The position numbers were made by a program. This document shows, one piece after another, positions 57,301-64,000 of a DNA stretch of 64,000 nucleotides (its first letter is position 1; every line of letters starts with the position of its first letter). This DNA is from Escherichia coli (GTDB taxonomy: Bacteria; Pseudomonadota; Gammaproteobacteria; Enterobacterales; Enterobacteriaceae): the NCBI RefSeq assembly GCF_030013205.1, contig NZ_CP122648.1. One strand, written 5' to 3'.

Positions 57301-60300
57301 ATGCCGTGTTCATGGCCTGTACGAGATAACATGACGGATCACTTTTATGAGCAAAAAATTTGAAGGCAGCGTCGCGCCTCGCGAGCGTATTAATATATCG
57401 TATGTCCCAAAAACAGATGGCCAGACGGCTGAAGTTGAACTTCCGCTTAACATGCTCGTTGTCGGCGATACCGGAAATACGCAGGAAACATCCCCACTGG
57501 ATGAACGTCAGGCAGTTTCCGTTAACAAGCACAATTTCGGTGCAGTGATGGCTGAAGCAGCCATTGGCCTCAATTTTACTGTCCCCGCCACGCTGAAGGG
57601 AAGCACAACAGACGATGAACTGAATGTGGCGCTGAATATCAAATCACTGGATGATTTTTCACCAGATAGCGTGGCCCGGCAGGTTCCGGAAGTGAATAAA
57701 TTGCTGGAACTGCGTGAAGCACTGACTGCGCTGAAGGGGCCGATGGGCAACCTTCCGGCATTCCGTACCCAGCTCCAGGCATTGCTGGAAAATGAAGAGT
57801 CCCGCAAGCAGTTGCTCAAAGAAATCGGCCGGGTGAGCAATAAATAACCACCGCTATTTCATTAAACAGGGTTATCCAGGCATGACGGCACACAAAAATA
57901 TCTCCGGGACATACCACCTCTCTGTTGCAGACATTCTGCAGGTGGTTTACCAGGTATGTTTCAGCCCGTCCGTTGAAATCAACCAGGATGGTGTGGCTGC
58001 GCTGATTACAACACTGGATCGCCGTATCAGTGATCTATTGGATGAGATTATCCATTTTTGTGAGTTTCAGCAGAGCGCGTCGCACTGGCAGCGCGTACTT
58101 CACTGATGGCGAAAAGCCGGTTTCAGAAACACAGCTAAAACAGAAGGATTTTCAGTATGTCTTTACAGGAAGAGGAACTCGTTTCCAGTCATGCCGAGCA
58201 GCCTGAGCAGGCATCGTCGCTGCTTGATCAAATCATGGCACAGACCCGTATTCAGCCCGGTTCGGAAGGTTATGACGTTGCCCGCCAGGGTGTGACAGCC
58301 TTTATTGCCAGCATCCTGCAATCCACTGCATCTGCCGAACCGGTCAATAAACTGGCCGTGGACAGCATGATTGCAGATATTGATGAACGCATCAGCCGCC
58401 AGATGGATGTCATCATCCATGCGCCTGCCTTTCAGCAGGTCGAGTCGTTCTGGCGCTCACTGAAAACCATGGTGGATCGCGTTGATTTCCGTGAAAACAT
58501 CAAGGTCAACGTGCTTCATGTCACCAGGCAGGAACTTCTGGAAGACTTTGAGTTTGCGCCAGAAATTATTCAGTCCGGATTTTATAAGCACGTTTATTCG
58601 TCCGGTTTCGGACAGTTTGGCGGTGAACCCATCGCTGCCGTGCTGGGCGCTTATGAGTTCAAAAATACCGCGCCTGACATGAAACTGCTGCAATACGTCA
58701 GTGCCGTGGGCGCAATGGCGCACGCACCGTTCCTGTCCTCCGTTTCCCCGGAGTTTATGGGGCTGAACTCGTGGACCGAACTGCCTAATATCAAAGATCT
58801 TTATGCCATCTTTGAAGGTCCGGCCTACACCAAATGGCGCGCCCTGCGTGACTCGGAAGATTCGCGCTATTTAGGGCTTACGGCACCCCGCTTCCTGCTT
58901 CGCCAGCCCTATTCACCAACAGATAACCCTGTTAAGAACTTTAACTATCACGAAGATGTCAGCCGGAACCACGAAGATTATCTGTGGGGTAATACGGCCT
59001 GGATGCTGGCGTGCAATGTCGCAGACAGTTTTGCCAAATACCGCTGGTGTCCAAACATTATCGGTCCGCAAAGCGGCGGCGCAGTGAAAGATCTGCCGGT
59101 GCATCTGTTCGAAACGATGGGGCAGATTCAGGCCAAAATCCCAACCGAGGTGCTGGTCACCGATCGCCGCGAATTTGAACTGGCTGAAGAGGGTTTTATC
59201 ACCCTTACCATGCGTAAAGACTCTGATAATGCAGCCTTTTTCTCTGCAAACTCGGTACAAAAACCGAAGCACTTTCCGGGAAAAGACGCAGAAACCAACT
59301 ATAAGCTGGGTACGCAGCTTCCTTATCTCTTCATCATCAATCGGTTAGCGCACTACATCAAGGTGTTGCAGCGTGAACAACTGGGGTCATGGAAAGAAAG
59401 GAGCGACTTAGAAAGAGAGCTTAATACCTGGATCCGTCAGTATGTTGCCGACCAGGAAAACCCGCCTGCGGACGTGCGCAGCCGTAAACCTCTGCGCGCT
59501 GCCAAAGTTGAGGTTATGGATGTGGAAGGCGAACCCGGCTGGTACCAGGTCGCGCTGAGCGTGCGGCCCCATTTTAAATTTATGGGGGCAAACTTTGAGC
59601 TTTCCCTGGTTGGCCGGTTAGACAGGGAGTAACACGCCATGATACCGGATCGGGAAAGAACCACAGGTTCTCTTTTTGAGCGTATGGAAGCCTCACCGGC
59701 CAGAAACCGGCAGGGAAGCAGTATTCATGCGCTCAGGCAGTCCATTCGCCAGAACCTGCGAAACATTCTTAATACCCGGTCCGGTAGTTGCCGGGGTGCG
59801 CCTGAACTGGGCATTGATGAACCGGAAGGGGCTGAAAACTTCCGCGAATCAATGAGCCGGGCCATCGCGCAATGTATAGAACGCTATGAACCCCGGCTCT
59901 CACACGCTGAAGTGCAGGCTGTGGTTTCATCCGCCGCCAGCCCGCTGGATATGACGTTTCATATTACAGCCTGGGTGACATTTAACGAAACGCATGAAGT
60001 GCTTGAATTTGATATGGCACCGAATGGCAGCCAGCATTACCGGGTGGACTGACAGATGGAATTTGAAGAACGCTATTTCCGGGAAGAACTCGATTACCTG
60101 CGCCAGCTCAGCAAGCTGCTGGCAACGGAAAAACCCCATCTGGCCCGCTTCCTGGCCGAAAAAGATGCGGATCCGGATATTGAACGCCTGCTGGAAGGCG
60201 TGGCTTTTCTTACCGGCAATCTTCGCCAGAAAATTGAGGATGAATTCCCAGAACTGACGCACGGGCTTATTAAGATGCTGTGGCCTAATTACCTGCGTCC

Positions 60301-63300: not shown

Positions 63301-64000
63301 AACCGGGGAGATATCCCCCATTACGATGAGGAAATGGCCACTCCCGAAACCATCGTCACCAATCGCGATATGCTCACGGATACCCTGCTGTCAACGGAGG
63401 GTGCGCCACACTATCCGGGAATGACTCACCGGCATCAGCTTGCAGACACCGTGGTAAACGGTTTTTCTGCCGATCCACTCCAGGCTCTTCAGTCCGAAAG
63501 CCTGATTACCACGGGCGATCCGCTTTCAGGCATTGCGGCTGTCCGGCCATCGGCACCGCTGTCCGATCCGGCAAGTAATGGGGGGATCAATACGCCGTTT
63601 ATGGATCTGCCGCCCATTTATGCCAGCCCCGGCGATCGTAATGATGACGTCTCTGTGGCAGAAATGGCGCAACGCCACCTTGCGGTCACCCCCTTACTGC
63701 GCGGTCTCGGCGGTTCGCTTACCGTGAGCAATTCCGACGATGCGGATGATTTTCTGGAAGAGGCCGGACGAACGTTACAGGCCGCAATAAAAGGTCTGCT
63801 CGATTTGCAGCAACAGCGTAACAGCCTCTCAGACAAACATTTGCGCCCGCTGGAAGATAACCCGCTGCGCCTGAACATGGATTACGCCACCGCGCTCGAC
63901 GTGATGTTTGCCGAAGGTAAAAGTCCGGTACATCTGGCGGCTCCCGCCGCTGTCAGTGAAAGCCTGCGCAATGTCCGCCACCACGAAGAAGCTAACCGGG

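Follow-up and report, generated by a model that had tools for sequence, protein, structure and literature searches.

The distal part of the window (the whole 64-kb stretch of Escherichia coli DNA that was analysed) very probably covers the yafV-proximal half of a T6SS2 island (T6SS-i1, Vibrio cholerae-like) located at the yafV–aspV site, which in the lineage of the window is a non-functional, decaying remnant rather than a working weapon. Besides the identities of the genes, two deletions (A and B), an amber codon in tagH and a distribution limited to one lineage were observed, and no markers of i2 and i4b, the two other T6SS classes of E. coli, were found in the 17 genomes of that lineage.

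Identity, site and gene content of the island

Gene calls in the window were based on Pfam and NCBIfam profile searches, in which all of the core genes gave full-length equivalog matches (Table 1). As claimed in an earlier note on this DNA, a cluster in the order tssB-tssC-tssE-tssF-tssG-tagH was found, with the first five genes full-length and tagH crossing the window end, and tssB begins about 4.6 kb beyond yafV. The proteins encoded by tssB, tssC, tssE, tssF and tssG have the same lengths as those of the intact comparator, the bovine XJ6.1, from which they differ by 2–4 amino acids each, and none of the five genes contains an internal stop; together with the profile matches, this agrees with the earlier view that, tagH aside, the sheath and baseplate genes are intact. 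With regard to the T6SS-i core genes, both the sheath (tssB, tssC) and the baseplate (tssE, tssF and tssG in the window, tssK in genomes K_EC180 and ETEC4067) are therefore present and intact. The 74-aa ORF located between tssB and tssC shares 36% identity with TssC residues 50-100 (BLASTP; E-value, 3e-8) and matches positions 43-82 of the TIGR03355 profile (E-value, 5e-4). Its sequence is identical (225/225 nt) in Sakai, XJ6.1 and the swine strain CFSAN018748, and it is a conserved feature of this cluster type.

Table 1. Features identified in the yafV-proximal half of the island (positions are those of the window).
Feature	Position	Strand	Evidence or remarks
yafV (2-oxoglutaramate amidase; core-genome flank of the island)	51932-52702	+	PGAP, from genomes matching this part of the window at 100% identity
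ISAs1-family transposase pseudogene with an internal stop, at the island's end near yafV	52743-53879	-	Pfam DDE_Tnp_1_assoc and DDE_Tnp_1; PGAP pseudogene
125-aa gene directly downstream of rhs, intact	54100-54477	-	Protein WP_001077735.1
rhs 3' fragment	54477-56666	-	NCBIfam RHS_core; PGAP "missing N-terminus"
Deletion A junction	56664-56667	.	Alignment breakpoints, junction sequences, 3-bp microhomology (GTT)
AT-rich divergent intergenic region, former hcp–tssB, retained	56667-57346	.	GC 0.39-0.43
tssB (sheath small subunit), intact, 166 aa	57347-57847	+	Pfam VipA 1e-51; NCBIfam TIGR03358 2e-50
74-aa ORF resembling the TssC N-terminus (ECs_0232 in Sakai)	57882-58106	+	BLASTP, TIGR03355
tssC (sheath large subunit), intact, 491 aa	58157-59632	+	Pfam VipB 4e-126; NCBIfam TIGR03355 6e-211
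tssE (baseplate, gp25-like), intact, 137 aa	59639-60052	+	NCBIfam TIGR03357 5e-34
tssF (baseplate), intact in the window, 616 aa	60056-61906	+	NCBIfam TIGR03359 2e-166
tssG (baseplate), intact, 360 aa	61870-62952	+	NCBIfam TIGR03347 2e-104
tagH (FHA-domain accessory protein), pseudogene	62977-64000	+	Amber codon; PGAP "internal stop"

The locus is collinear with the aspV island of EHEC O157:H7 Sakai (ECs_0216-0237) and shares 97.7% nucleotide identity with it over 11.8 kb. Judged by this collinearity and identity, it is the T6SS island found at aspV in E. coli other than K-12, as the earlier note had supposed. The T6SS clusters of both EHEC (PMC5363993) and EAEC 042 (PMC2808357) have been described as aspV islands. 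The near-identity to the ST11 cluster, combined with the nomenclature used in the literature, points to the subclass T6SS-i1, i.e., the "T6SS2" of E. coli: i1 is the sole T6SS subclass of ST11 genomes and is named T6SS2 in the E. coli field (PMC12282107). At least 80% of the island stretch was found in 2,085 of 5,426 complete E. coli genomes. No tRNA-Asp was found inside the window, and an Rfam search of positions 50000-64000 found no family; aspV, which the earlier note had left to be located, was placed 9.6 kb past the window end both in ETEC4067, which matches the window fully over the compared stretches, and in K_EC180.

The 4.6 kb between yafV and tssB, left undescribed in the earlier note, also belongs to the island and is occupied by the ISAs1 pseudogene, the immunity-like gene and the N-terminally truncated rhs.

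The K-12 neighbours that had been expected on this side of yafV were seen in the order aspV-yafT-ykfM-yafU-yafF-yafV. The K-12 alignment stops inside the ISAs1 pseudogene, and "yafF" of K-12 is a remnant of the same element. Thus, yafT-ykfM-yafU-yafF of K-12 occupies the same island site, with yafT/ykfM/yafU being 92% identical to the aspV-proximal end of the island and yafF corresponding to its ISAs1 end. In K-12, a single deletion has taken the entire stretch from the ISAs1 remnant to yafU and with it the complete T6SS, whereas the window lineage has lost two internal blocks and kept nine core genes.

Comparison with Sakai (ECs_0216-0237) and EDL933 (Z0250-Z0267) showed that the yafV–aspV site is shared and that the genes follow one order, with the 74-aa ORF again lying between tssB and tssC. 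EDL933 secretes KatN through its aspV-island cluster (PMC5363993). Unlike these strains, the window lineage is devoid of hcp1, vgrG, the N-terminal half of rhs, vasI, tssA, tssM, the C-terminus of tssH and the N-terminus of vasL, and has an amber codon in tagH. The Rhs C-terminal toxin/immunity module also differs from that of Sakai, the alignment stopping within rhs, and Sakai has a lesion of its own, an annotated tssA pseudogene.

Over positions 56667-64000, the window is 99.0% identical to XJ6.1 and 99.5% identical to CFSAN018748. Both relatives share the presumed immunity protein, TssJ and TssK with the window lineage in identical form, whereas its TssB and TssE have identical counterparts in CFSAN018748 only. 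XJ6.1 has 13/13 core genes annotated without lesions, ordered hcp-vgrG-rhs-immunity and, on the other side of the divergent intergenic region, tssB-orf74-tssC-tssE-tssF-tssG-tagH-tssJ-tssK-tssL-tssH-vasI-tssA-tssM-vasL-hcp. The large cluster of V. cholerae is ordered vipA/vipB, a tssE-like gene, vasA, vasB, vasC (FHA), vasD, vasE, vasF, vasG, vasI, vasJ, vasK and vasL. The intact E. coli allele shares the order of this T6SS-i1 prototype, and the Pfam names VasI, VasJ and VasL agree; unlike in V. cholerae, however, that allele has no annotated vasH (sigma-54 activator) between tssH and vasI, and its hcp-vgrG-rhs module is attached divergently. The copy in the window is truncated.

Two deletions and an amber codon in tagH

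Deletion A comprises 5,262 bp of XJ6.1 (L002 21048-26309) that are absent from the window. According to the Pfam identities of the deleted genes, this segment contains the first 2.3 kb of rhs, vgrG and hcp. Of the T6SS-i core genes tssD (Hcp) and tssI (VgrG), the vgrG of the cluster and the upstream hcp are thus deleted in the window, and one downstream hcp is left. The otherwise intact cluster implied by the earlier note does not hold, and this loss inside the window had been overlooked. The junctions of both deletions lie in unique sequence and show 3-bp microhomology, and a repeat search of positions 52000-64000 found nothing, so that no repeats or IS copies border either deletion.

The Rhs shell is represented in the remaining part of rhs by its C-terminal half, encoded together with the core motif and a putative toxin region of ~240 aa at the C-terminus; this fragment matches the NCBIfam RHS_core profile at positions 773-1261 of 1261 only. 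The N-terminal DUF6531 domain and most repeats of the intact protein have been deleted, so that a full shell is absent, while three parts of an Rhs effector locus are present: the core motif, the C-terminal region and, downstream, the 125-aa gene. The C-terminal region gave no Pfam match at E-values ≤ 1 apart from noise, and its matches to PDB were limited to a linker in common with CdiA-CT. Based on its position, the 125-aa gene is presumed to encode the Rhs immunity protein; the same protein occurs in K_EC180, XJ6.1 and CFSAN018748, and its Pfam match to DUF7674 is weak and sub-threshold.

The retained intergenic region corresponds without interruption to the hcp upstream region of XJ6.1 and presumably contains promoters; a promoter/terminator scan of positions 56400-57450 gave 3 promoter-like sites versus 2.6 expected, which is not above chance. 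Deletion A places this former hcp upstream region directly before rhs codon ~777, and the longest ORF of the rhs fragment begins at an in-frame ATG (56648), preceded by GGAG at 9-nt spacing. It is conceivable, although rather unlikely, that deletion A is more than damage, and that an N-truncated Rhs of 723 aa (half shell plus toxin) and the intact immunity gene are expressed, retaining immunity to the Rhs toxin of T6SS-proficient relatives. If so, the truncated Rhs and its immunity protein could also serve as an addiction-like toxin/immunity pair stabilising the remnant.

The tagH gene (an alternative upstream ATG is found at 62956) has its last 257 nt past the window end and contains a single in-frame TAG at 63262-63264, corresponding to codon 96 within the FHA domain. 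This codon is GAG in XJ6.1, Sakai and CFSAN018748, and intact XJ6.1 tagH matches TIGR03354 over its full length. The amber codon and a second change, Q32L, are derived in the window lineage.

Deletion B (7.04 kb) lies beyond the window, and was seen in five genomes identical to the window over the compared stretches and in twelve near-identical genomes. It takes the 3' end of tssH, vasI, tssA, tssM and the 5' part of vasL, the identity of the deleted tssA being confirmed by Pfam. Of the membrane complex genes, tssJ and tssL are present, and tssM is deleted in 17/17 genomes with junction A. The tssH (clpV) gene is not intact: 816 of its 931 codons are followed by 15 codons out of frame into vasL, and PGAP describes it as "missing C-terminus" in both K_EC180 and ETEC4067, which share the same truncated downstream structure. 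Since the genomes are identical over the compared stretches and junctions A and B co-occur perfectly, deletion B is probably also present in the genome of the window, where tssM, falling outside the window, would likewise be absent. The remaining core genes, whose absence downstream would by the earlier note refute its reading, are thus found only in part, which goes partly against that reading: tssJ, tssK, tssL and one hcp are present in the genomes identical over the compared stretches, but tssA, tssM and vasI are missing, and tssH and vasL are truncated. In total, 9/13 core genes (tssB, tssC, tssE, tssF, tssG, tssJ, tssK, tssL and one hcp) are still intact.

Distribution of the remnant and decay in relatives

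Over two stretches, 1-25000 and 52000-64000, which add up to 37 kb of the 64 kb, the window matches ETEC4067, 4069, 4070, 4071 and 4079 at 100% identity; positions 25001-51999 were compared solely with the near-identical K_EC180, where 2 mismatches and 4 indels relative to the window were counted in the first 49 kb. Junction A was found in 17 of 5,426 complete E. coli genomes, and junction B in those 17 and no others. All 17 come from pigs or wild boar, with isolates from Korea, France, Belgium and Japan among them, and the two typed in a publication are O139:H1 ST1. The window is from a pig-associated lineage, whose typed members belong to O139:H1 ST1 (edema-disease STEC/ETEC). The lineage-specific substitutions (3 nonsynonymous and 5 synonymous) are too few for a dN/dS test of relaxed selection.

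The undeleted sister strain CFSAN018748 keeps all of the island DNA, in contrast to the window lineage with its two deletions, but its vgrG is interrupted by ISCro1, and hcp, tssC and tssH carry annotated lesions. Within a sub-lineage of the junction-bearing genomes (EC556, EC571 and EC581), tssF is split by ISCro1. Taken together, these lesions suggest that decay of the island is ongoing.

Functional state of the island

The intact island encodes a contractile injection machine with a TssB/TssC sheath, a TssE/F/G/K baseplate, a TssJ/L/M membrane complex, a TssA cap, the recycling ATPase ClpV (TssH) and an Hcp tube, whose VgrG spike carries the Rhs toxin, with the immunity gene adjoining. In the window lineage, deletion A (5.26 kb, at microhomology) has cost the machine hcp, vgrG and half of Rhs (the N-terminal half), the amber codon lies in the FHA domain of TagH, and deletion B, likewise at microhomology and just past the window, has taken vasI, tssA and tssM together with the C-terminus of ClpV and most of vasL. 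It is likely that a machine deprived of TssM, TssA and the cognate VgrG can neither assemble nor fire. That the sheath and baseplate genes are still intact probably just reflects a recent loss.

The five full-length core genes in the window, which differ little from their counterparts in an intact cluster, would also be expected if the T6SS were intact and functional, with the remaining core genes (tssJ, K, L, H, A, M, hcp and vgrG) just past the window and tagH dispensable, and this island type is common and often complete (PMC12282107). Such a reading is hardly credible, as deletion A has already taken hcp, vgrG and half of rhs (the 5' half) inside the window, and all of the identical or near-identical genomes are devoid of tssA, tssM and vasI and have a truncated tssH. 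The chance that both deletions are assembly artefacts is practically nil: Rhs and IS repeats are classic places of misassembly, which is a general consideration with nothing specific to this locus, whereas identical junctions, situated in unique sequence with 3-bp microhomology, were obtained from 17 independently sequenced complete genomes originating from several countries.

It is also very unlikely that the sheath and baseplate of the remnant still work with TssM, TssA and VgrG provided in trans from a further T6SS locus or an orphan island of the same genome, although the nine intact core genes would fit such a role, Rhs/ISAs1-like sequence occurs at 7-8 places per genome, and the published virulence inventory of two lineage genomes lists "T6SS" and, elsewhere in the genome, "vgrG1" and rhsA (PMC8798679), from which an orphan vgrG may exist outside the island. 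Against this, the i2/i4b T6SS markers gave no matches in 17/17 genomes by word-11 blastn, with a chimeric query (the lineage-specific junction and four 200-bp i2/i4b segments from EAEC 042) whose markers matched at least 856 other genomes and which a very divergent or unusual system would escape. A distant-mode tssC search detected a class at ~72% identity in 580 genomes, its sensitivity for i2/i4b not being established. Both tssC and the tssH/vasL segment are present in one copy per genome in the lineage, and the destruction of tssF by ISCro1 in three lineage members shows no sign of counter-selection. Furthermore, components of one T6SS subclass generally do not substitute for those of another.

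A decaying remnant therefore remains the preferred reading. The 17 pig and wild boar genomes have 9/13 core T6SS genes at this locus and no i2/i4b marker; thus, inventories listing "T6SS" for such genomes (PMC8798679) are not evidence of a working secretion system. The island itself is already known, and the public annotation of the identical genomes already flags its pseudogenes. The remnant adds one more case of repeated, independent T6SS-i1 decay in E. coli, alongside the full deletion in K-12, the tssA pseudogene of Sakai and the other tssH-vasL deletions seen in the marker blastn search.

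The aspV island and its genes

The ORF listing and the Pfam and NCBIfam matches agree on a single co-directional row of genes from tssB to tagH on the plus strand, in the order and at the place where the earlier note had put it, 4.6 kb after yafV (51932–52702). The equivalog matches of the core genes are all full-length (E-values, 5e-34 to 6e-211). Relative to the intact allele of the bovine strain XJ6.1, tssB, tssC, tssE, tssF and tssG are equal in length, contain no stops and differ by 2–4 amino acids each. The exception of tagH had been rightly flagged, as this gene carries one in-frame amber codon at 63262–63264 (GAG to TAG, codon 96, inside the FHA domain), as well as a second derived change, Q32L.

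Features of the T6SS cluster and its yafV-proximal side in the window
Feature	Position	Strand	Basis or remark
ISAs1 pseudogene	52743–53879	−	marks where the K-12 deletion ends on the left (K-12 stretch L004, 5099–5103)
rhs remainder	54477–56666	−	RHS_core profile positions 773–1261 of 1261 only
Deletion A junction	56664–56667		alignment to XJ6.1
tssB	57347–57847	+	ORF listing, Pfam, NCBIfam
74-aa ORF	57882–58106	+	ORF listing
tssC	58157–59632	+	ORF listing, Pfam, NCBIfam
tssE	59639–60052	+	ORF listing, profile searches
tssF	60056–61906	+	ORF listing, profile searches
tssG	61870–62952	+	ORF listing, profile searches
tagH	from 62977, past window end	+	ORF listing, profile searches

The 74-aa ORF between tssB and tssC, annotated just as "hypothetical" (ECs_0232 in Sakai), resembles TssC residues 50–100 (36% identity; E-value, 3e-8) and matches positions 43–82 of TIGR03355; its sequence suggests a relic, or else a paralogue, of the N-terminal part of TssC. 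All of its 225 nt are identical in Sakai, XJ6.1 and CFSAN018748, whereas the neighbouring genes differ by 1–3%. Identity of the ORF reaches 99% or more in 1,965 of 2,255 genomes, and that of tssC in only 167 of 2,846; this contrast is partly a length effect.

In XJ6.1, the interval between yafV and aspV is 32.9 kb long. With domain identities taken from Pfam, the minus strand carries, in order, ISAs1 remnants, an immunity gene, rhs (1499 aa), vgrG and hcp, and the plus strand carries tssB, orf74, tssC, tssE, tssF, tssG, tagH, tssJ, tssK, tssL, tssH, vasI, tssA, tssM, vasL, hcp and a hypothetical gene of 304 aa; the island ends with ykfM, a yafT-like gene and then aspV (plus strand). The same gene order is found at the same site in O157:H7 Sakai, and across 11.8 kb Sakai and the window lineage share 97.7% identity. 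According to the literature, ST11 genomes contain only subclass T6SS-i1, known as "T6SS2" in E. coli field usage (PMC12282107), and the clusters of EHEC (PMC5363993) and EAEC 042 (PMC2808357) are described as aspV islands. Taken together, these comparisons make assignment of the window cluster to the family of the E. coli T6SS2 aspV island secure, and its near-identity to the ST11 cluster points to subclass T6SS-i1. The suspected tRNA-associated island of non-K-12 strains was thus the right system in the right genomic context, and aspV itself was located 9.6 kb past position 64000 in ETEC4067.

In K-12, the order is aspV-yafT-ykfM-yafU-yafF-yafV, with yafU/yafT and aspV on that side, as the earlier note had it. 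The segment yafT-ykfM-yafU is 92% identical to the aspV-proximal end of the window-lineage island, after which the alignment jumps into the ISAs1 pseudogene beside yafV; in yafU, only the 3′ part survives of the 302-aa gene that follows the second hcp, and the counterpart of yafF is the ISAs1 end. As read from this jump, K-12 is the end state, in which the whole T6SS was lost in one single deletion.

Two deletions in the window lineage

Alignment to XJ6.1 revealed two clean deletions in the window lineage, the island of which is 20.9 kb long. Deletion A comprises 5,262 bp, namely the first 2.3 kb of rhs and the whole of vgrG and the upstream hcp; its junction has a 3-bp microhomology (GTT), and a search for repeats flanking it found none. 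Deletion B, located some 5.3 kb past the end of the window, comprises 7,041 bp with a CTG microhomology. It removes the last 115 codons of tssH, followed by the genes vasI, tssA and tssM, and the first ~320 codons of vasL, leaving an 831-codon tssH frame that terminates out of frame in vasL.

Probes of 300 bp across each junction were compared with 5,426 complete genomes. The junction A probe was matched end to end in a single piece in 17 of them, and the junction B probe was contiguous in the identical set. Over window positions 1–25000 and 52000–64000, the complete genomes ETEC4067, 4069, 4070, 4071 and 4079 match with 100% identity, and all five fall within these 17 (ETEC4067 was inspected directly). 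We strongly infer that the source DNA of the window also carries deletion B. Near-identical genomes include K_EC180 and the O139:H1 strains W13-16 and P15-25, described as ST1 edema-disease STEC/ETEC (PMC8798679); the hosts on record for the lineage are swine or wild boar. In the window lineage, an IS200C copy separates the yafT-like gene from aspV (stretches L001, 23979–24437, and L009, 21954–22412); XJ6.1 and CFSAN018748 have no copy at this spot.

Different deletions were observed at the same places in other lineages, for example from tssH to vasL in KSC64, NCTC9038, 17MR471 and KSC9, and spanning hcp to rhs in PK5 and CUPF12. The latter two lack junction A, since the probe is covered only as two pieces ~950 bp apart. 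Such a distribution suggests that T6SS-i1 has been eroded recurrently and independently at the hcp–rhs and tssH–vasL spots across E. coli lineages.

Functional state of the locus

The locus retains intact copies of nine core genes out of 13, namely tssB, C, E, F, G, J, K and L plus one hcp; tssH is truncated, and tssA, tssM and the cluster vgrG are absent. According to PMC12282107, E. coli needs all 13, and a "Present" call takes at least 12; by this threshold, the locus would fall short of a T6SS. A second system that could supply the missing parts in trans was sought with a chimeric query, in which the lineage-specific junction B was joined to four 200-bp EAEC 042 markers from Sci-1 (i2: tssH, tssF) and Sci-2 (i4b: tssC, tssM). 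In word-11 blastn, none of the four markers had a match in the 17 lineage genomes, where only the junction was matched. The markers do work, since with them in the query the count of genomes with a match rose from 3,444 to 4,300. Both tssC and the tssH/vasL segment are single-copy in the lineage genomes.

Loss of function is supported by further decay. In the Japanese sub-lineage (EC556, EC571 and EC581), tssF is split by ISCro1, an IS66-family element (EC556 stretch L008, 4390–8947). The closest undeleted relative, the swine strain CFSAN018748 (99.5% identical), has an independent ISCro1 insertion in vgrG (stretch L006, 9182–14756); its hcp, tssC and tssH are also annotated with lesions, some of which could be sequencing errors. 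Lineage-specific substitutions are too few for a selection test. The earlier call of a T6SS cluster holds for the system, its context and tagH. The cluster is nevertheless truncated by two deletions, and this remnant of a very well-known island is almost certainly non-functional. Its pseudogenes are already marked in the public annotation of identical genomes. The virulence inventory of W13-16 and P15-25 lists "T6SS", "vgrG1" and "rhsA" (PMC8798679); as both strains carry the doubly deleted aspV cluster, its "T6SS" entry probably stems from fragments of genes rather than from a complete system.

The sole mildly novel possibility remaining is a truncated Rhs product. Through deletion A, rhs from codon ~777 onward directly follows the region that once lay upstream of hcp, and the in-frame ATG at 56648, which is preceded by GGAG at a distance of 9 nt, could possibly start a predicted protein of 723 aa. 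Profile and structure-sequence comparisons revealed no recognisable toxin family in its C-terminal region (~240 aa). Within this region there is a hydrophobic stretch rich in Gly and Ala, and similarity to the CdiA-CT of PDB 5J43 and 8ZYC is confined to a linker.

Other features of the window

The following features are taken from the annotation of the near-identical K_EC180. A small island (~19786–28902) beside tRNA-Thr (anticodon CGT, 28917–28992) contains the toxin-antitoxin genes AbiEii/AbiEi and a complete type I restriction-modification system (hsdR, hsdM, hsdS), along with a gene of the ash family and a fragment of an integrase. In the gene cluster of the E. coli common pilus, the major-subunit gene ecpA (~2781–3398, plus strand) has an internal stop and is annotated as a pseudogene; ecpR and ecpB–E are intact. 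In the Flag-2 lateral flagellar remnant (~42109–45310), lafU lies against a 5′-truncated flhA, and a hicA/hicB pair comes next; in XJ6.1, this site holds the complete Flag-2 gene set. On the minus strand, at ~37706–39456, prfH (release factor H) forms a pair with a gene for an RNA ligase of the rtcB family.
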